NCBI RefSeq assembly: GCF_048403405.1
Contig: NZ_CP183129.1
Reading direction: 5' to 3' (one strand)
DNA length: 64,000 nucleotides
DNA from: Escherichia coli
GTDB lineage: Bacteria > Pseudomonadota > Gammaproteobacteria > Enterobacterales > Enterobacteriaceae
Position 1 is the stretch's first letter. Each line of letters opens with the position of its first letter. The position numbers and the translations under genes were made by a program. Of this stretch, positions 7,237 through 45,802 are shown one piece after another. The notes beneath the pieces are model-generated. The model was not told the origin of the DNA and ran no database searches. It saw only the letters and a program-made list of their open reading frames with translations.

Positions 7237-7851
7237 TTATCTGTTTGAGCCTAAAGGGATCTCAGGGTCTGGCTCATGAGTAATTCTGTTTCGTAAATCT
7301 CTGCGAATAATTTCAATGGACCAGAACCAGACTAAATGTCCAAAAATTTCAGAAACATTCTCATACCACGGGAGATCAAACAGAGGTGGCGTCAGTCCCA
7401 TGAGAGGGAATGAAATCATATGAACAAAAAGTTGGGCTAAAGCACCTGCCAGTAAGCCCTGCCAGAGTTTAATTTTTGGAAATACTTCAGCGACCACACA
7501 ATAACCGACAGCAAACACTATCGAAAAGATAATGTGCGTAACACCAACCCAGTTAAAGACATGCCCGGCAAAGGTATAAACAGCCGCATTGGGATCTGTC
7601 AGCCCCAACCAGTCTCGAAGAAAAATATACGGAGGATTGAGAAAATTACGGGAGCAATCAATTTGCCCAGCAGCCCTGATTAATGATTCCGGGCCACACG
7701 CTGCATTAAACATATCCACCGGGCTACGTGGCGGCAATGGAACTTCAGCCCCCCACTTCACAAATGCGGAAACAACGCCAGCAATCAGCCCAATGAATGC
7801 AGCAAGACCATAACGTCTGCGGTTCGGTGGAGTTTGTTCAAATATATTCAT
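7237..7851 (-). CDS. yagU: Inner membrane protein YagU (DUF1440)
   Basis: 204-aa [33 protein letters not shown], multi-TM. Confidence 0.9.
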
Positions 7852-8257
7852 ATCTACCCTGCTTGTACCATTATGTTATACACCTCTTCAGGAGTATTCA
7901 TAAAATAAGACAAATGTAAAGAACTGTATTGTTTTGTATAACAAGATAGTTTCCTAATCGCCAATGAATATAAGCACCATCATTTCTCCCTATTTTTATG
8001 TTAGAAGTGACAAAGATTTGTAGGGTGATGCAGAGCTGACAATCACAGGTTTCCTTATCGGTTTTTGCATCGTACAACTAAAGCAATAAACGAGCTCCCG
8101 TCATCGGCGAATATGAATTAATTAGCCGGGCTCATAGCTGCATTCGCGTTTTAAGAATAATCCTCCTGCTCTCACCGACTATGCTTAACGTTTAAAAAAG
8201 CATCAGCACTCTCGCAACGCTCTCTTATTTTCCCCTTTAGAATACCGGAGGCCTGGT

Positions 8258-8947
8258 ATGAGCAACCAAGGCGAATACCCCGAAGATAATCGGGTTGGGA
8301 AGCACGAGCCGCACGATTTTAGTTTGACCCGTCGCGATCTGATTAAAGTCAGCGCCGCAACGGCGGCGACCGCCGTGGTTTATCCTCATTCTACGCTTGC
8401 AGCAAGCGTTCCGGCAGCTACACCCGCGCCAGAGATAATGCCCCTGACACTTAAGGTGAACGGCAAAACCGAGCAGTTGGACGTTGATACCCGAACCACG
8501 CTACTGGACGCTTTGCGTGAAAATCTGCATCTGATCGGTACCAAGAAAGGTTGCGATCACGGGCAGTGCGGAGCCTGTACCGTGCTGGTCAATGGTCGCA
8601 GGCTTAATGCCTGCCTGACGCTTGCAGTCATGCATCAGGGGGCCGAGATCACCACCATTGAAGGCCTGGGTTCACCAGAGAATCTTCACCCCATGCAGGC
8701 GGCCTTTATCAAGCATGATGGCTTCCAGTGCGGCTACTGCACCTCCGGGCAAATTTGCTCATCAGTAGCGGTGCTAAAAGAGATTCAGGACGGCATTCCC
8801 AGTCACGTCACGGTCGATTTGGTTTCCCCTCCAGAAAGAACGGCCGATGAGATCCGTGAACGTATGAGCGGCAACATCTGTCGCTGTGGAGCATACGCTA
8901 ACATCCTTGCCGCCATTGAAGACGCTGCGGGGGAGATAAAATCATGA
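8258..8947 (+). CDS. paoA: Periplasmic aldehyde oxidoreductase, 2Fe-2S subunit PaoA (Tat signal)
   Basis: Twin-arginine motif LTRRDLIKV; two Cys clusters ([11 protein letters not shown] and CRCGAY) typical of 2Fe-2S ferredoxin subunits. Confidence 0.95.
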
Positions 8948-9900
8948 AGGCGTTTACCTATGAACGAGTGAACACCCCGGCCGAGGCGGCACTTAGCGCT
9001 CAGCGCGTACCCGGCGCAAAATTTATCGCTGGCGGGACCAATCTGCTGGACCTGATGAAGCTGGAAATTGAAACGCCAACCCACCTTATCGATGTGAACG
9101 GGCTCGGGCTCGATAAGATTGAAGTGACCGACGCGGGTGGGCTGCGCATCGGCGCACTGGTACGGAACACCGACCTGGCAGCTCACGAGCGCGTGCGTCG
9201 TGATTACGCGGTACTCTCCCGCGCCCTGCTCGCTGGCGCGTCTGGTCAGTTACGTAATCAGGCAACCACCGCAGGTAATCTGCTCCAGCGCACGCGCTGC
9301 CCCTATTTTTACGACACCAATCAGCCCTGCAATAAGCGCCTGCCCGGGAGCGGCTGCGCGGCACTTGAAGGCTTTAGCCGTCAGCACGCGGTGGTAGGCG
9401 TAAGCGAAGCCTGCATTGCCACCCATCCGAGCGATATGGCGGTCGCAATGCGGTTGCTGGATGCGGTGGTGGAAACCATCACGCCGGAGGGAAAGACTCG
9501 CAGTATCACACTGGCTGATTTTTATCACCCTCCAGGAAAAACGCCGCACATTGAAACCGCCCTGCTTCCCGGTGAGCTTATCGTTGCGGTGACGTTACCT
9601 CCGCCGCTCGGCGGAAAACATATTTACCGTAAGGTGCGCGATCGCGCCTCCTACGCCTTTGCCCTGGTATCGGTCGCAGCGATTATTCAGCCTAACGGCA
9701 GCGGGCGCGTCGCGCTGGGCGGAGTAGCACATAAGCCCTGGCGCATTGAGGCTGCGGATGCTCAGCTATCCCAGGGGGCGCAGGCCGTGTATGACGCGCT
9801 GTTCGCCAGCGCCCATCCCACCACTGAAAACACCTTTAAACTCCTGTTGGCGAAGCGAACGCTTGCCTCCGTACTGGCTGAAGCGAGGGCACAGGCATGA
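8944..9900 (+). CDS. paoB: Aldehyde oxidoreductase FAD-binding subunit PaoB
   Basis: 318-aa ORF overlapping paoA stop; CO-dehydrogenase flavoprotein-like. Confidence 0.93.
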
Positions 9901-12104: not shown

Positions 12105-13061
12105 ATGTCATACTCGCTTTTTGACAAAGACGAGCACTGGCATAAGCCAGAGCAGGCGTTTCTCACCGATGACCACCGGACCATTCTGCGCTTCGCCGTA
12201 GAGGCGCTAATGTCCGGTAAAGGAGCGGTGCTGGTGACGCTGGTGGAGATACGCGGCGGCGCGGCGCGCCCGCTCGGGGCGCAGATGGTGGTGCGCGAAG
12301 ATGGTCGTTACTGCGGTTTTGTCTCTGGCGGCTGCGTGGAGGCCGCTGCCGCTTTTGAAGCGCTGGAGATGATGGGCTCAGGCCGCGATCGCGAAATTCG
12401 CTATGGTGAAGGTTCGCCGTGGTTTGACATCGTTCTGCCCTGCGGCGGTGGGATCACGCTGACGCTCCATAAACTACGCTCGGCACAGCCTCTGCTCGCC
12501 GTGCTGAACCGCCTGGAACAGAGAAAACCGGCGGGTCTGCGCTACGATCCGCAAGCTCAATCGCTGGTGTGCCTGCCCACGCAAACCCGGACGGGCTGGA
12601 ATCTCAATGGCTTTGAGGTGGGGTTCAGACCATGCGTCAGTCTGATGATTTACGGACGTTCTCTTGAGGCGCAGGCAACCGCGAGTCTTGCAGCAGCCAC
12701 AGGCTATGACAGCCATATCTTCGATCTTTTTCCGGCCTCAGCCAGCGCTCAGATCGATACCGATACGGCGGTCATTTTGCTGTGCCATGATCTCAACCGG
12801 GAGCTGCCAGTGTTGCAGGCCGCGCGAGAGGCAAAACCCTTTTATCTCGGCGCATTGGGCAGCTATCGAACCCACACTTTACGTCTGCAAAAGCTCCACG
12901 AGCTGGGATGGTCCAGGGAGGAGACAGCGCAAATCCGGGCACCCGTCGGGATATTCCCCAAAGCCCGGGATGCGCATACTCTGGCACTCTCCGTGCTGGC
13001 AGAAGTCGCCTCTGTACGTCTCCATCAGGAGGAGGATTCATGCCTGCCCCCGTCGTCCTGA
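12105..13061 (+). CDS. paoD: XdhC-like molybdenum cofactor insertion chaperone PaoD
   Basis: 318-aa ORF immediately after paoC. Confidence 0.9.
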   Translation: MSYSLFDKDEHWHKPEQAFLTDDHRTILRFAVEALMSGKGAVLVTLVEIRGGAARPLGAQMVVREDGRYCGFVSGGCVEAAAAFEALEMMGSGRDREIRYGEGSPWFDIVLPCGGGITLTLHKLRSAQPLLAVLNRLEQRKPAGLRYDPQAQSLVCLPTQTRTGWNLNGFEVGFRPCVSLMIYGRSLEAQATASLAAATGYDSHIFDLFPASASAQIDTDTAVILLCHDLNRELPVLQAAREAKPFYLGALGSYRTHTLRLQKLHELGWSREETAQIRAPVGIFPKARDAHTLALSVLAEVASVRLHQEEDSCLPPSS

Positions 13062-13125
13062 TCCTTGCGGCCGGGCGTGGAGAGCGCTTTCTCGCCTCCG
13101 GGGGAAATACCCATAAATTAAGAGA
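13040..13125 (+). pseudogene. Possible 5' remnant of a MobA/MocA-like nucleotidyltransferase gene
   Basis: ATG overlapping paoD stop encodes MPAPVVLILAAGRGERFLASGGNTHKL, resembling the N-terminal NTP-transferase motif; similarity is lost after about 28 codons. Confidence 0.3.
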
Positions 13126-13240
13126 AAAATCTGCAGTAGCCGTTTTAGAAAATCACCTAAATCGTTTAAAAGAGCACCCAACCCATAGTGGGCGCTCATC
13201 GCCTTGTGTAACTTATTCAGCAACGCGCGCCCTCGCCGGA

Positions 13241-14434
13241 CTAAAGCGCACCGGCCTTCTGGCGTGCGGTAACAAAGGTCAGTACGCCAGCGCAAAGGAG
13301 CAGCACGCTACTCATAGCAAACGTGCTCTGCCAGCCAAGGCGGTCAAATACGATGCCTCCTGCTGTTGATCCAAGGGCGATGGAGAGCTGAATCACCGCG
13401 ACCATGAGCCCGCCTCCGGCTTCGGCGTTGTCAGGCAACGTACGCGCAATCCATGTCCACCATCCGGTTGGCGCGGCGGTGGCCAGCATGCCCCAGAGTC
13501 CTAACAGCAGCGAGACCGTCCAGACGTGATGCCCGGTCAGCATCAGACCGATAGCAATGACGGCCATCAGTCCGGGTATGGCCATCAGCGTGGGGTAGAA
13601 TTTTCTGTTGAGAAATGCCGAAACAACCAGCGTGCCAATAAAACCGGCCACGCCGATAATCAGCAAAATCAACGACAAGCCTAAGGAATTAACCCGTGTC
13701 ACCGACTCCAGAAACGGGCGCACATAGGTGAATAGTGCAAACTGCCCCATGAAAAACAGGCAGCAGGCTATCATGCCGACCACAACCATGCGGCGGCTAA
13801 ATAAGCGGAATACCGCGCCACATGAAGTGTGGCTTTTATTCGCATCCATGCTTGGCAGGCTGATGCACTGCCAGATAAAGGCGACAACCGCGATGGGCAC
13901 CAGGCACAAGAAAGCGCCTCGCCATCCGACCGTAGCCCCCAGATAGCTTCCCAGCGGTGCGGCCACGACCGTCGCCAGCGCATTACCGGCGTTGAAAATT
14001 GCCAGCGCACGCGTGACCTGATGCTGCGGCACCAGACGAATCGCCGTTGCCGCTGACATCGACCAGAATCCGCCAATAGCCACACCAATCATCGCACGAC
14101 CGACCATATACATCAGATAACTGGAAGCCAGCGCAATAATAAGCCCCGATACGGCCATCAGAACCGTCATCCCCAGCAGCAGGAACTTACGATTCATCTT
14201 TCCAGCTAGCGTTGAAAGCGTCAGGCTGGTCAGAACCGCCAGCGCGCCGGAGATAGCAATCCCCTGCCCTGCCAGCCCCTCCGTCACGCCTAAATCGCGG
14301 GTAATCGGCGTGAGCAGGCTGACGGGCATAAATTCAGAAGCAATCAGCACAAACACGCACAGGGTCATGGCAAAAATACCGCCCCAGTATGCGCGCTGAT
14401 GATGAGGTGATAGTGTTTGGCTTAGTGTCGACAT
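13241..14434 (-). CDS. Major facilitator superfamily transporter (12-TM)
   Basis: 397-aa hydrophobic ORF with MFS-like loop motifs. Confidence 0.85.
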   Translation of the reverse strand: MSTLSQTLSPHHQRAYWGGIFAMTLCVFVLIASEFMPVSLLTPITRDLGVTEGLAGQGIAISGALAVLTSLTLSTLAGKMNRKFLLLGMTVLMAVSGLIIALASSYLMYMVGRAMIGVAIGGFWSMSAATAIRLVPQHQVTRALAIFNAGNALATVVAAPLGSYLGATVGWRGAFLCLVPIAVVAFIWQCISLPSMDANKSHTSCGAVFRLFSRRMVVVGMIACCLFFMGQFALFTYVRPFLESVTRVNSLGLSLILLIIGVAGFIGTLVVSAFLNRKFYPTLMAIPGLMAVIAIGLMLTGHHVWTVSLLLGLWGMLATAAPTGWWTWIARTLPDNAEAGGGLMVAVIQLSIALGSTAGGIVFDRLGWQSTFAMSSVLLLCAGVLTFVTARQKAGAL

Positions 14435-14509
14435 AGTGAAATTTCACAAAGATCAGGATAAAAGCCACCAGCCTATGGCCGGTGGCTTTGCATCAATTCA
14501 GGAGAGGTT

Positions 14510-15646
14510 TTATTTCAGTTTGGTCTGGAAAAATTGTTCGAACTTCGCGAAAGGTATTTTTCCGGCCACGTTATCGTACAGGTCCACGTGATTTGCCCCT
14601 GGTACCACCACCAACTCTTTGTCTTTACTGCCAACCGCCTTGTAAGCATCTTCAGCAAAATAGCGTGAATGTGCTTTCTCACCGGTCACAATCAGCGTCG
14701 GAATGGTGATTTCACTGGCGTAGCTCAACAGCGGCATATTCATAAATGACAGCGGCATCGTTGCCGTCCACGCCCCGGTAGAGTTAACGGAACGTTCGTG
14801 GAAGCCGCGCGGCATGCGATAGTAGTCAAAGAACTCTTTCAGTACCGGATGAGGATTTGCCGGCAGCGTTTCTGGCAGAATGCGCTCGCCCGCACTGACC
14901 TTGCCGTTGCTGTCGACATTAATATCATGACCACCGTGAGCGAACGTTCCGCTCTGCGCATCCTTCCAGCGCTGTTCATTCAGATATTGCAGAACGGCAC
15001 GACGGTCGGCGGTAGAATAACGGTCTTTGCCATCCCCCACACCATGACCCATCGCCCGGCTCATGTCATACATCACGCTGGTAGCTACCGCTTTAACGCG
15101 GGTATCCATCGCCACGTCGTTCAGCGCCATGCCGCCCCAGCCACAAATACCGAGCAGCCCGATACGGTTGCGATCTACCTCTTTTTGCAGCCCTAAGAAA
15201 TCCACCGCCGCGCTGAAATCTTCAGTGTTGATATCCGGTGAGGCGACGTTTCGCGGATAGCCGCCGCTTTCCCCGGTGTAAGAAGGATCGAACGCCAGGG
15301 TAACAAACCCTCGTTCCGCCAGCGTCTGCGCATACAAGCCGCTGGATTGCTCTTTCACCGCGCCAAATGGCCCACTGACCGCAATCGCCGCCAGCTTGCG
15401 ATCGCCACGGTCTTTAGGCAGGTAAAGATCGCCCACTAAGGTGATGCCATATCGGTTCGGGAACGAGACTTTACGGTGATCGACTTTCTGGCTCTCGGCG
15501 AACGTTTTATCCCATTTATCTGTCATGGACACAGGGGCATTAGGATTGGTTGAATCAGCATAACTCATTGTCGTGACTCCACTTAATGATGCGAAAAGCA
15601 GCATGGTCGGCATCGCGGTTTTTAGCGTGCGGGTGAAGGCTTTCAT
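14510..15646 (-). CDS. Secreted alpha/beta-hydrolase-fold protein (putative Cys/Ser hydrolase)
   Basis: N-terminal signal peptide; nucleophile-elbow-like GICGWGG motif; ends VVVPGANHVDLYD. Confidence 0.7.
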   Translation of the reverse strand: MKAFTRTLKTAMPTMLLFASLSGVTTMSYADSTNPNAPVSMTDKWDKTFAESQKVDHRKVSFPNRYGITLVGDLYLPKDRGDRKLAAIAVSGPFGAVKEQSSGLYAQTLAERGFVTLAFDPSYTGESGGYPRNVASPDINTEDFSAAVDFLGLQKEVDRNRIGLLGICGWGGMALNDVAMDTRVKAVATSVMYDMSRAMGHGVGDGKDRYSTADRRAVLQYLNEQRWKDAQSGTFAHGGHDINVDSNGKVSAGERILPETLPANPHPVLKEFFDYYRMPRGFHERSVNSTGAWTATMPLSFMNMPLLSYASEITIPTLIVTGEKAHSRYFAEDAYKAVGSKDKELVVVPGANHVDLYDNVAGKIPFAKFEQFFQTKLK

Positions 15647-15832
15647 AAAAATCCCCATAAAAAACAACAGAGAGATACAGGTTTCCGACGGACAACGCTG
15701 CGGTGCTTTACTTTGATGGGGTCATTATAGTGAGCAGAATTAGTGCTGATTAGGGGGCGATTAATGCTAAGATTAATACCATATTGTTATAAATTAATGT
15801 GGAGATTGCCGGCATGAAGGGGGGATGTTTCA

Positions 15833-16717
15833 ATGGCGAAAAGGGAGAACTACAACGAGCTGTACCTGTTTATGCAGGTGGTGCGAGAAGGCAGCTTTAC
15901 CGCAGCGGCTCAGCGGCTGGGTCTTGCTCAGTCAGGAGTCAGCCGTTCTGTTCGCGAGCTTGAAGAAAGGCTGGGTGTCCAGCTGCTAGTGCGCACCACG
16001 CGTAAACTGTCGCTGACACAAGCAGGCGAGCAGCTCTACCAGAAGACGGCATCTGGATTTGAAATGTTAGATCTTGGGCTTGCCACACTGGCGCACTATC
16101 GAGAGACGCCCTCCGGCACGGTGCGTATCAATGCCAGCCAGCACGCGATTGATAAATGCCTGCTGCCAAAGCTGGCGGTATTTAAACAGCGATATCCTGA
16201 TATCCGGCTTGAACTGATAAATGAGAGCCGGTTCGTCGATATCATCGAGGAAAGATTCGATGCAGGTGTCCGCCTGGGGCCTGAAGTCGGCCAGGGTATG
16301 GTCGCGGTACGCATCACGCCCGATATGGAGATGGCAATTGTGGGGACTCCGGAACATTTTCGTCGCTATGGTTTTCCGCAAACCCCGGCGGATTTAAAGG
16401 CGCATCCCTGTATCGCCTATCAGTTTGCCGACGGCAGCGTATACCAGTGGGAACTCAATCAGGATGATAAAAAAATCACTCATCGCCCTGAAGGGCAATG
16501 GGCCTTATCCGACAGCTATATGGAAGCAGAAGCCGCCCGGCTGGGCCTCGGATTGGCCTATGTTCCTGTTGAACTGGTCGCGGATGATTTAGAACACGGT
16601 AAGCTTATCAGGGTGTTGCAGCGTTACAGCCTGCGAATGGAGGGATTGTTTCTCTATTACCCTCATCGCAACGTCTCCCCCGCCCTGCGGATGGTCATTG
16701 ATACATTGAAAATCTGA
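15833..16717 (+). CDS. LysR-family transcriptional regulator
   Basis: 294 aa; N-terminal HTH FTAAAQRLGLAQSGVSRSVRELEERLGVQLLVRTTRKLSLTQAG; divergent from the hydrolase-MFS pair. Confidence 0.88.
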   Translation: MAKRENYNELYLFMQVVREGSFTAAAQRLGLAQSGVSRSVRELEERLGVQLLVRTTRKLSLTQAGEQLYQKTASGFEMLDLGLATLAHYRETPSGTVRINASQHAIDKCLLPKLAVFKQRYPDIRLELINESRFVDIIEERFDAGVRLGPEVGQGMVAVRITPDMEMAIVGTPEHFRRYGFPQTPADLKAHPCIAYQFADGSVYQWELNQDDKKITHRPEGQWALSDSYMEAEAARLGLGLAYVPVELVADDLEHGKLIRVLQRYSLRMEGLFLYYPHRNVSPALRMVIDTLKI

Positions 16718-16789
16718 ACGTTAACAACGACCGACTCTTTACTGTGCAATATTGTGTCAGGTAGTCCCTCTGCGTTCAATTCCAGGGTT

Positions 16790-17210
16790 TGTACTGACCC
16801 CAAAAAGTTGGACAGTTAAACACGAGGCATATAGGTCTGATTCCGATATTCAATTGGAGTCAGACCTTTTAATTTCAGGCTAATTCTTCTGCTGTTGTAG
16901 TATTCAATATATTCCGTAACAGCATCCTTCAGTTCGCTTATATTACTGAACTCATCAAGATAAAAACACTCCGACTTTAAGGTTCCAAAGAAACACTCCA
17001 CCACAGCATTATCCAGACAATTGCCTTTTCTGGACATGCTTTGTTTAATACCATGTTCTTTAAGGATATTTTGATATCTTCTCATACGATACTGCCATCC
17101 CTGGTCAGAGTGCAGAACAGGATGCTCGTGAGGATTAAGCTTTTTGAATGCCTGATCGAGCATATTCTCAACCATGTTCATCACTGGTCTTTCCGAAAGG
17201 CTGTAAGAAA
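16790..17210 (-). mobile_element. IS3-family (IS150-group-like) element, right part: orfB C-terminal fragment plus terminal repeat
   Basis: Minus-strand translation ...[47 protein letters not shown]...; end sequence tgtactgaccccaaaaagttggac; abuts IS26 at 17211. Confidence 0.8.
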
Positions 17211-18030
17211 GGCACTGTTGCAAATAGTCGGTGGTGATAAACTTATCATCCCCTTTTGCTGATGGAGCTGCACATGAACCCATTCAAAGGCCGGCATTTT
17301 CAGCGTGACATCATTCTGTGGGCCGTACGCTGGTACTGCAAATACGGCATCAGTTACCGTGAGCTGCAGGAGATGCTGGCTGAACGCGGAGTGAATGTCG
17401 ATCACTCCACGATTTACCGCTGGGTTCAGCGTTATGCGCCTGAAATGGAAAAACGGCTGCGCTGGTACTGGCGTAACCCTTCCGATCTTTGCCCGTGGCA
17501 CATGGATGAAACCTACGTGAAGGTCAATGGCCGCTGGGCGTATCTGTACCGGGCCGTCGACAGCCGGGGCCGCACTGTCGATTTTTATCTCTCCTCCCGT
17601 CGTAACAGCAAAGCTGCATACCGGTTTCTGGGTAAAATCCTCAACAACGTGAAGAAGTGGCAGATCCCACGATTCATCAACACGGATAAAGCGCCCGCCT
17701 ATGGTCGCGCGCTTGCTCTGCTCAAACGCGAAGGCCGGTGCCCGTCTGACGTTGAACACCGACAGATTAAGTACCGGAACAACGTGATTGAATGCGATCA
17801 TGGCAAACTGAAACGGATAATCAACGCCACGCTGGGATTTAAATCCATGAAGACGGCTTACGCCACCATCAAAGGTATTGAGGTGATGCGTGCACTACGC
17901 AAAGGCCAGGCCTCAGCATTTTATTATGGTGATCCCCTGGGCGAAATGCGCCTGGTAAGCAGAGTTTTTGAAATGTAAGGCCTTTGAATAAGACAAAAGG
18001 CTGCCTCATCGCTAACTTTGCAACAGTGCC
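17211..18030 (+). mobile_element. IS26 copy 1 (820 bp, complete)
   Basis: Terminal inverted repeats ggcactgttgcaaa at 17211 and its reverse complement ending at 18030; internal Tnp26 ORF. Confidence 0.95.
17271..17978 (+). CDS. tnpA: IS26 transposase Tnp26 (IS6 family)
   Basis: [57 protein letters not shown]... Confidence 0.95.
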   Translation, partial: HMNPFKGRHFQRDIILWAVRWYCKYGISYRELQEMLAERGVNVDHSTIYRWVQRYAPEMEKRLRWYWRNPSDLCPWHMDETYVKVNGRWAYLYRAVDSRGRTVDFYLSSRRNSKAAYRFLGKILNNVKKWQIPRFINTDKAPAYGRALALLKREGRCPSDVEHRQIKYRNNVIECDHGKLKRIINATLGFKSMKTAYATIKGIEVMRALRKGQASAFYYGDPLGEMRLVSRVFEM

Positions 18031-18743
18031 CTTGCTGGTAGTGGTTCTGTAGCCAGGTGGCTGAAGGTCTATGAAGAGCGCGGAGAAGCTGGTTTACGCG
18101 CGCTCAAGATTGGCACCAAAAGAAACATTGCAATATCAGTTGATCCAGAAAAAGCGGCATCAGCATTGGAGCTGTCAAAAGACCGACGCATTGAGGATCT
18201 TGAAAGGCAAGTTCGATTTCTTGAAACGCGGCTTATGTATCTAAAAAAGCTGAAAGCCTTAGCTCATCCCACGAAAAAGTAAAAGTACTCAACGAGCTAA
18301 GGCAGTTTTATCCTCTTGATGAGCTTCTCAGGGCTGCGGAGATACCGCGCAGTACGTTTTATTACCATCTAAAGGCTCTCAGCAAGCCTGACAAGTATGC
18401 GGACGTTAAAAAGCGTATTGGTGAGATTTATCACGAGAATAGAGGCCGATACGGATACCGTAGGGTAACGCTGTCTCTTCATCGAGAAGGGAAACAGATT
18501 AACCATAAAGCTGTTCAGCGCCTGATGGGAACCCTCTCACTTAAAGCAGCGATTAAGGTCAAGCGATACCGCTCTTACAGAGGAGAGGTAGGGCAAACCG
18601 CCCCTAATGTTCTCCAAAGAGATTTCAAGGCTACGCGGCCAAACGAGAAGTGGGTTACCGATGTTACTGAATTTGCAGTCAATGGGCGCAAGCTGTATTT
18701 GTCTCCAGTAATAGATCTCTTCAACAACGAAGTTATTTCTTAC
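18031..18743 (+). mobile_element. IS3-family element, internal part: orfA 3' region, A6G slippery site, orfB N-terminal fragment
   Basis: A-AAA-AAG frameshift heptamer at 18243-18249; orfB N-terminus ...[36 protein letters not shown], which continues in frame with the minus-strand fragment at 16816-17210. Confidence 0.8.
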
Positions 18744-19563
18744 GGCACTGTTGCAAAGTTAGCGATGAGGCAGCCTTTTGTCTTATTCAAAGGCCTTACA
18801 TTTCAAAAACTCTGCTTACCAGGCGCATTTCGCCCAGGGGATCACCATAATAAAATGCTGAGGCCTGGCCTTTGCGTAGTGCACGCATCACCTCAATACC
18901 TTTGATGGTGGCGTAAGCCGTCTTCATGGATTTAAATCCCAGCGTGGCGTTGATTATCCGTTTCAGTTTGCCATGATCGCATTCAATCACGTTGTTCCGG
19001 TACTTAATCTGTCGGTGTTCAACGTCAGACGGGCACCGGCCTTCGCGTTTGAGCAGAGCAAGCGCGCGACCATAGGCGGGCGCTTTATCCGTGTTGATGA
19101 ATCGTGGGATCTGCCACTTCTTCACGTTGTTGAGGATTTTACCCAGAAACCGGTATGCAGCTTTGCTGTTACGACGGGAGGAGAGATAAAAATCGACAGT
19201 GCGGCCCCGGCTGTCGACGGCCCGGTACAGATACGCCCAGCGGCCATTGACCTTCACGTAGGTTTCATCCATGTGCCACGGGCAAAGATCGGAAGGGTTA
19301 CGCCAGTACCAGCGCAGCCGTTTTTCCATTTCAGGCGCATAACGCTGAACCCAGCGGTAAATCGTGGAGTGATCGACATTCACTCCGCGTTCAGCCAGCA
19401 TCTCCTGCAGCTCACGGTAACTGATGCCGTATTTGCAGTACCAGCGTACGGCCCACAGAATGATGTCACGCTGAAAATGCCGGCCTTTGAATGGGTTCAT
19501 GTGCAGCTCCATCAGCAAAAGGGGATGATAAGTTTATCACCACCGACTATTTGCAACAGTGCC
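18744..19563 (-). mobile_element. IS26 copy 2 (820 bp, complete, inverted relative to copy 1)
   Basis: Identical Tnp26 ORF on minus strand; inverted repeats at 18744 and 19563. Confidence 0.95.
18796..19503 (-). CDS. tnpA: IS26 transposase Tnp26
   Basis: Protein identical to the copy at 17271-17978. Confidence 0.95.
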
Positions 19564-19803
19564 GATGATTTCAGATTTCATGACTTGAGACACACCTGGG
19601 CAAGTTGGCTGGTTCAAGCCGGTGTCCCGTTGTCAGTGTTACAGGAAATGGGAGGCTGGGAGTCTATCGAAATGGTTCGTCGATATGCTCACCTCGCACC
19701 TAATCACCTTACCGAACACGCACGGCAAATAGACTCGATCCTGAACCCATCGGTCCCAAATTTGTCCCAGTCAAAAAATAAGGAAGGTACTAATGATGTG
19801 TAA
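19564..19803 (+). pseudogene. P4-like tyrosine integrase, C-terminal about 80 codons (5' part replaced by IS26)
   Basis: ...[47 protein letters not shown]... carries the catalytic H-x-x-R and Y region; stop lies 14 bp from the tRNA-Thr 3' end. Confidence 0.8.
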
Positions 19804-19817
19804 CTTATTGATTTAAA

Positions 19818-19893
19818 TGGTGCCGATAATAGGAGTCGAACCTACGACCTTCGCATTACGAATGCGCTGCTCTACCAACTGAGCTATATCGGC
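19818..19893 (-). tRNA. thrW: tRNA-Thr (anticodon CGU)
   Basis: Reverse complement reads GCCGATATAGCTCAGTTGGTAGAGCAGCGCATTCGTAATGCGAAGGTCGTAGGTTCGACTCCTATTATCGGCACCA. Confidence 0.95.
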
Positions 19894-33009: not shown

Positions 33010-33740
33010 CTAGCGCGTTCGCTGCGAATGCACCTGCTGCTTATCCAGCTTTTGCACCAGCGGCTGCACCACTTTATCCCCATGCTGACCAAAGTATTGA
33101 TACAGCGTATCGGACGCACTTTTGGTCAGCACCATAATCTCAATGCGTCGGTTGCCCGCGCTTTGCGGATTTTTCGCGTCCAGCAGCATCTGGTCCGCCA
33201 TCGCGCTCACCTGCATCACTTTATCTTCCGGCATTCCGGCCTCTTCCAGCACCCGACGAGCCGAAAGCGCGCGATCGCCCGAAAGGTTCCAGTTGTTGTA
33301 GATATTGTTTTTGTAGGCCATCGCATCGGTATGCCCGGTAATAATAATTTTGTTATCGAGCGAGTCGAACACTGGCGCGAGCTCCACCAGCAAAGTTTTA
33401 AAGAACGGCATAATCTGTGCGCTGCCGCGTTCAAACATATTGCGGTTCTGGTCATCTTTAATCAGCACGCGCAGTCCCTGGGGAACAATCTCCATCTCCA
33501 GATTCGCTTCCATATGTGCATCACGGGCAATGGTGTTGATACTGGTCGCCAGCTCGCCAAGCTCAGTAGCGGATTTCTTCTTCAGCAGCGCCGTTTTCTC
33601 ATTGACGTCACGCGCTTTTTTCTCCGTCTCTTCCGGCACCGCCACGGTGGCAGGTTTTGGCGGATGAGACAGGCTGATTTTATTTAACGGCGACAACCCG
33701 CCGCCATTGAAAATCGACTGCCCGTGCAGCGCGGCGATAA
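33010..33740 (-). pseudogene. lafU: Lateral flagellar motor protein LafU (MotB-like), N-terminally truncated: Flag-2 remnant
   Basis: C-terminal OmpA-like domain present (...IIITGHTDAMAYKNNIYNNWNLSGDRALSARRVLEEAGMPEDKV...NRRIEIMVL); no N-terminal TM anchor. Confidence 0.7.
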
Positions 33741-35479
33741 TGCTTTCACGCTCGGATTTACTGACGCTGTTGACAATCAACTTTATCGTCGTCACCAAAG
33801 GGGCCGAGCGTATTTCCGAGGTTTCTGCCCGCTTTACCCTGGACGCGATGCCCGGCAAACAGATGGCGATTGACGCCGATCTTAACGCCGGGTTGATCAA
33901 CCAGGCGCAGGCGCAAACCCGGCGTAAAGATGTTGCCAGCGAGGCCGATTTCTACGGCGCAATGGACGGGGCATCGAAGTTTGTGCGCGGGGATGCCATC
34001 GCCGGGATGATGATTCTGGCGATCAACCTGATCGGCGGCGTCTGTATCGGGATCTTCAAATACAACCTGAGCGCCGATGCCGCCTTCCAGCAATATGTGC
34101 TGATGACCATCGGCGACGGACTGGTGGCGCAGATCCCGTCCCTGCTGCTTTCCACCGCGGCGGCGATTATCGTCACCCGCGTCAGCGACAACGGCGATAT
34201 TGCCCATGACGTGCGTAACCAGTTGCTGGCAAGCCCGTCGGTGCTCTACACCGCCACCGGGATCATGTTTGTGCTGGCGGTTGTGCCGGGGATGCCGCAT
34301 CTGCCGTTTTTGCTGTTCAGCGCCCTGCTTGGTTTTACCGGCTGGCGGATGAGCAAACGCCCGCAGGCGGCGGAGGCGGAAGAGAAAAGCCTCGAAACAC
34401 TGACCCGAACCATCACCGAAACCAGCGAGCAACAGGTCAGTTGGGAAACTATTCCGCTGATCGAGCCCATCAGCTTAAGCCTCGGCTACAAGCTGGTGGC
34501 GCTGGTGGACAAAGTACAGGGTAACCCGCTCACCCAGCGGATTCGCGGCGTGCGGCAGGTGATTTCTGACGGTAACGGCGTGCTGCTGCCGGAGATCCGC
34601 ATTCGGGAAAACTTCCGCCTCAAGCCCAGCCAGTACGCCATTTTCATCAATGGCATTAAGGCTGATGAAGCGGATATTCCGGCGGATAAACTGATGGCCC
34701 TGCCCTCCAGCGAAACCTACGGCGAGATTGACGGCGTGCTGGGGAACGACCCGGCGTACGGGATGCCGGTGACCTGGATCCAGCCCGCGCAGAAAGCGAA
34801 AGCGCTGAATATGGGGTATCAGGTGATCGACAGCGCCAGCGTGATTGCCACCCATGTGAACAAGATTGTCCGCAGCTATATTCCTGATTTGTTTAACTAT
34901 GATGACATCACGCAGTTGCATAACCGTTTGTCGTCGATGGCACCGCGCCTGGCGGAAGATTTGAGCGCGGCGCTCAATTACAGCCAATTGCTGAAAGTGT
35001 ACCGGGCGCTGCTGACCGAAGGCGTTTCCCTGCGCGATATTGTCACCATCGCCACCGTGCTGGTCGCCAGTAGCACAGTGACCAAAGATCATATCCTGCT
35101 GGCGGCCGATGTGCGCCTGGCATTGCGGCGCAGCATTACCCATCCGTTCGTTCGCAAGCAGGAGCTGACGGTGTATACGCTGAATAATGAGCTGGAAAAT
35201 CTGCTCACCAACGTGGTGAATCAGGCGCAACAGGGCGGGAAAGTGATGCTCGACAGCGTGCCGGTCGATCCGAATATGCTCAACCAGTTCCAGAGTACGA
35301 TGCCGCAGGTAAAAGAGCAGATGAAAGCGGCGGGGAAAGACCCGGTGCTGCTGGTGCCGCCGCAGTTGCGTCCTTTGCTGGCGCGTTATGCAAGGTTGTT
35401 TGCGCCGGGGCTGCATGTGCTGTCGTATAACGAAGTGCCGGACGAGCTGGAGTTGAAGATTATGGGGGAGTTGAGTTGA
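33707..35479 (+). pseudogene. lfhA: Lateral flagellar export protein LfhA (FlhA-like), N-terminally truncated: Flag-2 remnant
   Basis: FlhA-like from ...NFIVVTKGAERISEVSARFTLDAMPGKQMAIDADLNAG onward; lacks the first roughly 100 residues. Confidence 0.7.
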
Positions 35480-35576
35480 TGGGGGAGACTATATAAGGTC
35501 TCGGACTGTCCCCTCGCCCCTTTGGGGAGAGGGAGAAAAACGTGTACGACTTTAACTTTTTCGCAGTATTGCCGTC

Positions 35577-45071: not shown

Positions 45072-45802
45072 TACTTGCCTCCCAAAGCATTCTGTAAATC
45101 CTGAAGAACGTTTTCTGCTGCTGCTCGATCCCCTGGAGATGCTGTTGGATTCTTATCCAACCAATCCTGTAAAGCCCTTGTATAATCCTGTGCTTTCAAT
45201 ACATGTCCTCTACCACCAACTTTTTCACCTGTGGCCAATTCATAACGAACAGCATCTGCTGTGCTTCCACTTCCTACTTTTGCATTTGGCCGATAAAGAT
45301 CGTCTATAATATTTTTCAAATTTGAATCTGTAACGTCAGGTTTTCCCATCTTCTGTCGCAATTCATCTTTATACCGTTCATGCTGCATACGATCTCTTGC
45401 GCTATTCTCATCTTCTGGTCCCCATCCTCCCGGGCTTCCCGTACTGCCACCACCCAGGCAGTTCTTCTCTTCCTCCGTCAAATCCTTCCCGACATTTGGA
45501 TTCTCTTTTGATGAATCATCATTTCCAAACACGCTGGAAAAAGCACCATAGGGATCTCGCCAGAATTCCATTTGACTTTGTGCATTTAATAATTCGGCTT
45601 CACCCTGCATCTCCATACTTTTCTCAATCGCGTCCCCAACAGCCTCGCGATTGTTGTATATTATTATACCACCACCAATAACCACCGTACCGACTGCCGC
45701 ACCGACTAACATCCCCGGAGGGCCTCCTACCGAACCGATCTCTGTACCTACTTCAGAACCAGTTCCCATGGCAGTTAATGCTCCTGCGCCCAACGCCGCA
45801 CT
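45071..45802 (-). other. Rhs variable C-terminal toxin tip (about 243 aa after the DPLGL motif), family not assigned
   Basis: Begins with a Gly-rich hydrophobic stretch ([23 protein letters not shown]), then a charged domain (...[52 protein letters not shown]...). Confidence 0.55.

Follow-up and report, generated by a model that had tools for sequence, protein, structure and literature searches.

The DNA analysed here is a stretch of 64,000 nucleotides (nt) of an Escherichia coli chromosome (NCBI RefSeq assembly GCF_048403405.1, contig NZ_CP183129.1), referred to below as the window, and the region in question is the 6.8-kb segment (13062-19893) that runs from the end of paoD to the tRNA gene thrW. 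An earlier account made from the letters alone (the sequence-only reading) had described this segment as an island at thrW with a decayed integrase and a module of three genes as its cargo. The features that it named are real and lie where it placed them: thrW, the C-terminal remnant of an integrase cut by the insertion sequence (IS) IS26, a gap of 14 bp between remnant and tRNA, and, beside paoD, a trio of genes for a LysR-family regulator, a hydrolase and a transporter of the major facilitator superfamily (MFS). What it called IS debris is also present, and consists precisely of two complete copies of IS26 and two pieces of a single IS150.

The right edge of the segment is formed by thrW, an intact tRNA-Thr(CGU) gene on the minus strand (19818-19893) detected by ARAGORN and by the Rfam tRNA model (71.8 bits); it was the sole match in an Rfam scan of 12-21 kb. 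The gene is 100% identical to thrW of K-12, and proA and proB come next. On the left, paoD (12105-13061, +) is a 318-aa open reading frame (ORF), a conserved chromosomal gene annotated as paoD in all comparator genomes, and it marks the left edge of the variable region; in alignment, similarity to K-12 past paoD stops at 13116. The 3' end of thrW contains the 46-bp phage attachment (att) core of the SfI/SfII/SfV/SfX/P22 type (19818-19863, -), here in the position of attL; according to the SfI genome paper, phages SfI, SfII, SfV, SfX and P22 use this common core, the thrW 3' end beside proA (PMC3636060). An exact scan found the core once in the window and twice in K-12, and blastn-short with a word size of 7 found no partial copy of the thrW 3' end in the window. 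The duplicated thrW 3' end (attR) that the sequence-only reading had suggested seeking near 13.1 kb is thus missing, and a single core fits an attR that was lost together with its prophage.

The integrase relic (19564-19803, +) comprises 79 codons and a stop, equivalent to residues 294-372 of a 372-residue SfII/P22-type integrase. It matches the C-terminal end of the Pfam Phage_integrase family (E=1e-16), 14 bp separate its stop codon from the tRNA 3' end, and it directly abuts an IS26 whose terminal inverted repeat ends at 19563. Without its N-terminal 293 residues the relic is non-functional. Positions 19564-19817 (254 bp) are 100% identical to the 3' end of the full-length 372-aa int gene of strain QEC11-421, whose product is 99.7% identical to the Int protein of phage SfII and 89.8% to that of P22. 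In QEC11-421, int opens a complete lambdoid prophage beside thrW that carries an xis-like gene, exo/bet/gam, N, cI/cro/cII, O/P, nin, Q, and genes for lysis, terminase and a contractile tail. In the window, too, int reads into attL at the thrW 3' end with proA downstream, as expected for an SfII/P22-type prophage. Genes for excision (xis), immunity, replication, lysis and morphogenesis, and attR, are absent from the window and present in strain TUM1226, described below; the window therefore holds a relic, and not a prophage, of an SfII/P22-type lambdoid phage.

This phage type has well-known members. The Shigella flexneri serotype-converting phages SfII, SfV, SfI and SfX and the Salmonella phage P22 are lambdoid phages that integrate in thrW by proA, and they share with the window the type of int, its reading direction towards att, the 14-bp gap and the 46-bp core; unlike them, the window keeps only the last 79 int codons and lacks xis, the phage body and attR. 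The earlier estimate that about 80 integrase codons survive was accurate, but the P4-like type proposed for them was not. Full-length int gave only E=0.41 in BLASTP against IntF, the integrase of the CP4-6 prophage of K-12, which amounts to no detectable similarity, and the Pfam Arm-DNA-bind_3 domain was found in IntF and not in the 372-aa integrase. As the sequence-only reading stated, CP4-6 occupies thrW in K-12. The tRNA gene is the same and the att regions overlap, and a 49-bp duplicate of the thrW 3' end lies at the far end of CP4-6 in K-12. CP4-6 differs in its 466-aa P4-type IntF, which is encoded at the element's far end and is unrelated to the window integrase; none of the CP4-6 content occurs in the window, and K-12 lacks the trio.

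A 276-aa ORF (18973-19803, +) also covers the relic. It is a chimera in which the antisense frame of the IS26 transposase gene is fused in frame to the integrase remnant; the same antisense frame is also open in the other IS26 copy (17181-17801, -), and the chimeric ORF is unlikely to be a real gene.

The 14-bp terminal repeat of IS26 occurs in exactly four perfect copies, which bound two elements of 820 bp. Copy 1 (17211-18030) has its transposase gene on the plus strand and perfect 14-bp terminal repeats at 17211 and 18030; copy 2 (18744-19563) has its transposase gene on the minus strand, and its left end is the one that meets the integrase relic. Both copies are complete, lie in opposite orientation and are identical at 820 of 820 positions. 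To the left of copy 1 is IS150 fragment A (16790-17210, -), which represents IS150 nt 1023-1443 and includes its right end and the 3' portion of orfB. Its orientation is still that of the original insertion, and it is contiguous in alignment with an intact IS150 at the same site in strain FDAARGOS_1289. Fragment B (18031-18743, +), between the two IS26 copies, represents IS150 nt 318-1030, is inverted relative to fragment A and aligns in reverse orientation to the IS150 of FDAARGOS_1289. In that strain (comparator locus L003) the intact IS150 spans 7730-9172, in exactly the position and orientation given by window position 16790, and it is the only genome of the collection described below with IS150 at this site; the sister strains of the window lack it. 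FDAARGOS_1289 belongs to a different lineage, with flanks about 99.2% identical to the window as against 99.98% for the sister strains; its IS150 may stem from a separate insertion at a preferred site or from transfer by recombination.

The sequences that flank the IS26 copies record how they came to be there. An 8-bp target copy, GTAAGAAA (17203-17210), lies just outside the left end of copy 1, and a second, TTTCTTAC (18736-18743), forms the end of fragment B and precedes copy 2; the two are reverse complements of each other. The remaining two flanks are unrelated to one another; one, CTTGCTGG, lies at IS150 nt 318, the other, GATGATTT, at int codon 294. Joined end to end, and minus the duplicated 8 bp, fragments B and A rebuild IS150 nt 318-1443 with 3 mismatches in 1124 positions, and re-inverting the segment between the IS26 copies restores a continuous IS150 target. 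Inverted identical 8-bp flanks on two IS26 copies are diagnostic of intramolecular replicative transposition in trans, by which a segment is inverted and the IS duplicated, and unmatched flanks are the likely outcome of IS26 deletion in cis (He et al., 2015, mBio, PMC4471558). The window shares with the trans events the inverted identical copies, one inverted 8-bp flank per copy and a target rebuilt by re-inversion, and with the cis deletions the unrelated flanks that mark an adjacent deletion. It differs from the cases of that study in being chromosomal, at a prophage site and not on a resistance plasmid, and in involving no resistance gene within the window.

The arrangement, its junctions and the trio were searched for in 5,426 complete E. 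coli genomes. No locus covers at least 80% of the 6.8-kb segment, and neither the junction of IS26 with int nor that of IS26 with IS150 fragment B occurs in any of them (0 of 5,426 each). A check against the pangenome had been proposed for the case that this layout is a common ancestral state of E. coli; it is not common. As the sequence-only reading had supposed, strains vary greatly at thrW and the window strain has a remodelled site; the present arrangement is specific to the strain or sub-lineage.

What was there before can be read from close relatives. The 24 kb to the right of thrW is 100% identical to six complete genomes, three of which (4621, TUM14771 and TUM1226) were examined. Strains 4621 and TUM14771 have, in order, thrW, a different integrase relic of 204 bp, a small islet, a ykgR-like remnant and the LysR/hydrolase/MFS trio. 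The islet encodes a hypothetical protein, an ash-family protein, a 1069-aa protein and AbiEi/AbiEii, and looks like a small anti-phage islet; it spans 13090-19470 in TUM14771 (L005), 23537-29917 in L089 and 10334-16714 in L091, and its 204-bp integrase relic has an internal stop. TUM1226 has the same layout and, in addition, an intact SfII/SfV-like prophage of about 40 kb between thrW and the older 204-bp relic, with an exact attR core at the junction of prophage and relic. No annotated gtr genes for O-antigen modification appear in the prophage gene tables of QEC11-421 or TUM1226, although no dedicated gtr search was made.

The window and TUM1226 agree up to both edges of the IS material. From int codon 294 through thrW into proA they differ at 1 of 1948 nt, and from ecpD to a point 73 bp beyond the LysR gene (the ecp-pao-trio stretch) at 2 of 12,928 nt; overall flank identity is 99.95-99.99% on both sides. 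Between these two breakpoints TUM1226 has 46,625 bp and the window 2,773 bp of IS material, and the AbiE-bearing islet has been deleted in the window along with the prophage. What had been taken for an island at thrW, a hot spot of phage attachment, is thus a scar of about 2.8 kb left by a deletion. O157:H7 had been considered as the model for attR and the trio and was dropped in favour of TUM1226; its locus is a complex tandem array that spans the record start.

We therefore consider it probable, at roughly 0.85, that the segment is the scar of an IS26-mediated deletion of about 47 kb that included a whole SfII/P22-type prophage beside thrW, and that the trio is a separate accessory cassette. 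From the junctions we infer the order and exact route of events as follows. The ancestor would have resembled TUM1226, with proA, thrW/attL, an SfII/SfV-like prophage of about 40 kb beginning with int and xis, and attR, followed by the 204-bp int remnant with the AbiE-bearing islet, the ykgR-like remnant, LysR, hydrolase, MFS and paoD. In a first step, IS150 would have inserted 73 bp downstream of the LysR gene. In a second, a single IS26 would have been left joined to int codon 294 on one side and to IS150 nt 318 on the other, and about 47 kb would have been lost, namely the bulk of int, the entire prophage with its attR, the older islet and 317 bp from the left end of IS150. This step was most likely an intramolecular replicative transposition in cis; two recombining IS26 copies would leave an identical result. 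In a third step, this IS26 would have attacked IS150 nt 1023-1030 in trans, 705 bp away, which would have duplicated IS26 and inverted a 713-bp segment. Because CTTGCTGG and GATGATTT are unrelated, the pre-inversion state would have had one IS26 between truncated IS150 and truncated int, free of a target duplication, and the presence of the 8-bp repeat at some junctions and not at others places the deletion before the inversion.

The same scar could have acquired its inversion in two steps. A second IS26 would have inserted into IS150 with a direct 8-bp duplication, and homologous recombination between the copies would then have flipped the 713 bp. This route yields exactly the observed product, with one 8-bp copy outside and one inside and inverted, and such an alternative has been proposed for similar plasmid structures, as noted in PMC4471558. 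It needs two events as against one, and simple IS26 insertions with direct duplications are reported to be rare and intramolecular events common (PMC4471558), so we regard it as the unlikely route of the two.

A misassembly is hardly credible, despite the fact that short-read assemblies are classically misjoined at identical repeats such as these of 820 bp and that both IS26 junctions tested are absent from every other complete genome. Such an error would have turned a simpler locus, through its repeats, into one with two IS26 copies and an inverted piece of IS150. The breakpoints are, however, base-exact, the expected inverted 8-bp duplication is present and IS150 can be rebuilt; no target-site duplication would arise from a misjoin. 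In all other respects the flanking DNA is colinear with that of the sister strains.

Several points weigh against the deletion and inversion history that we favour. Its intermediate, with a single IS26 between truncated int and truncated IS150, occurs in no genome of the collection, so that the order of events is reconstructed and not observed. IS150 is missing from the sister strains, and apart from the window only a genome of an unrelated lineage has it at this position. One-step transposition and the two-step route yield identical products and are not separable from sequence alone. The analysis covered the 64-kb window, and IS26 may have come from a plasmid or from another chromosomal copy. 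The putative function of the trio is assigned from family membership.

The trio itself lies between the scar and paoD. The LysR-family regulator (15833-16717, +; Pfam HTH_1 and LysR_substrate) is divergent from a hydrolase-MFS operon; its nearest NCBIfam model is YafC, with a score under that model's cut-off. The hydrolase (14510-15646, -) is a predicted exported alpha/beta hydrolase of the PA2218/YcjY family, with matches to PDB 2HDW (PA2218, E=8e-125) and to YcjY (5XB6, E=1e-43). The last gene of the operon encodes a NepI-like (DHA1-type) MFS transporter (13241-14434, -; Pfam MFS_1, E=1e-38) for which RefSeq gives the start as 14368. It is annotated as intact in the sister strains, and its best NCBIfam match, NepI, also scores under the cut-off.

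RefSeq starts the hydrolase at the ATG at 15568 (352 aa), which omits a signal peptide. An in-frame upstream ATG at 15646 is preceded by GGGGA, and the extension that it adds (15569-15646, -) encodes MKAFTRTLKTAMPTMLLFASLSGVTTMSYA|D. A signal-peptide-like N-terminus is conserved in the Kluyvera, Hafnia, Psychrobacter, Aeromonas, Sphingomonas and Adhaeribacter homologues, and the comparable signal peptides of homologues in distant taxa, which cover many phyla, are of the Sec or twin-arginine type. The RefSeq start is probably too short, and the enzyme is most likely exported, in agreement with the sequence-only reading, which had called it secreted. Its alignment with PA2218 runs over the full length and includes the GICGWGG motif, in which the nucleophile elbow G-I-C-G-W-G has a cysteine at the nucleophile position. 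This suggests a cysteine nucleophile; dienelactone-type hydrolases also have one. The structures of PA2218 and YcjY are those of uncharacterised proteins, and the linkage with LysR and MFS genes was looked at here only for the E. coli-type cassette. A literature search on YcjY/PA2218 function returned nothing specific, and the top-ranked papers contained the term 'dienelactone hydrolase' and neither protein name. By family membership, the likeliest role of the trio would be that of a LysR-controlled divergent operon for periplasmic ester or lactone hydrolysis by a cysteine-type enzyme, together with an efflux-type MFS pump.

If the segment were one decayed thrW genomic island, with its integrase eroded, this module would be the surviving cargo. 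The position of the trio between thrW and the conserved pao genes fits such an island, as do its variable occurrence (complete in 912 of the 5,426 genomes), the pseudogene remnants (ykgR-like and yagP-like) that flank it in other strains, and a 91.6% nucleotide identity over 3,564 bp with the Kluyvera trio, which makes a horizontal origin plausible. The integrase, however, belongs to a complete phage whose genome excludes the trio. The TUM1226 trio is outside the att-bounded prophage, on the far side of both attR and the older islet, and that of NRZ14408 neighbours a thrW devoid of any integrase sequence. The far att copy of K-12 and QEC11-421 is directly followed by yagP, a LysR-fragment pseudogene, and in empty-site strains yagP is situated between thrW and the trio. 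Since yagP follows the far att copy and separates thrW from the trio, phage insertions fall on the thrW side of yagP. Nor is there an att copy near paoD; no direct or inverted repeats beyond chance flank the trio; and G+C content (0.50-0.58 in the trio, 0.57-0.61 in pao) shows no sharp step at its edges. A single decayed island is thus very improbable and already largely refuted, and the trio is not cargo of the integrase's element but neighbouring accessory chromosome.

Elsewhere the trio is found in other surroundings. In Kluyvera, Hafnia, Enterobacter cloacae and Psychrobacter it likewise forms a linked set, and further genera have the hydrolase-LysR pair linked; the LysR gene is linked to the hydrolase gene in 9 of 11 homologous loci examined outside E. 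coli. No pao or proA homologue lies near the trio in other genera, within the roughly 7 kb fetched on each side, and no mobility function was found attached to it. The trio is a widespread PA2218-type hydrolase cassette and behaves as a portable module. It may, tentatively, be a self-contained unit that moves among Enterobacterales without a recognisable mobility gene and that settled in the recombination-prone paoD-thrW gap of E. coli, with perhaps a lactone or ester xenobiotic as substrate.

About 2,350 other genomes, K-12 among them, keep only 55 bp after paoD. A simple deletion of the trio was considered for K-12 and rejected, as K-12 has, from the paoD flank to the shared part of the yagP remnant, 103 bp (L004, 38613-38715) without a match in the trio-bearing comparators aligned. 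The K-12 state and the trio-bearing state seem both to derive from an older arrangement, which was not found.

Some smaller differences were noted around the site. In NRZ14408 (L001, 8506-8626), about 60 bp just downstream of thrW, missing from FDAARGOS_1289, K-12 and QEC11-421, looks like a tandem duplication, judging by alignment offsets. The 'ykgR remnant' beside LysR in other strains, deleted in the window, is a partial duplicate, diverged (74-91%), of the ykgR-ykgL region situated some 13 kb to its left on the far side of the ecp operon (L001 7868-8133 compared with L008 34833-35782). Outside the segment, the window is colinear with 4621 over 20887-63183 at 99.98% identity or more, except that 4621 has a 2.7-kb insertion of ISCro1 (IS66 family) at about 45201-45208 of the window, in the Rhs/type VI secretion region, which the window lacks. 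By colinearity with the 4621 annotation, window positions 33010-35480 (approximate) hold lafU and then a truncated flhA-like pseudogene, the remains of the lateral-flagella (Flag-2) cluster as found in many E. coli.

Every component and mechanism described here is already established: thrW as the P22/Sf attachment site, deletion and inversion by IS26, IS150, and CP4-6 in K-12. The exact junctions are strain-specific, the finding is otherwise ordinary, and it has little significance beyond strain-level bookkeeping. It does provide a clean chromosomal example of IS26, best known from resistance plasmids, removing about 47 kb that included a prophage and an abortive-infection islet. The integrase stub left behind could be mistaken for an ancient genomic island, and an integrase fragment beside a tRNA gene does not make the adjoining genes its cargo.

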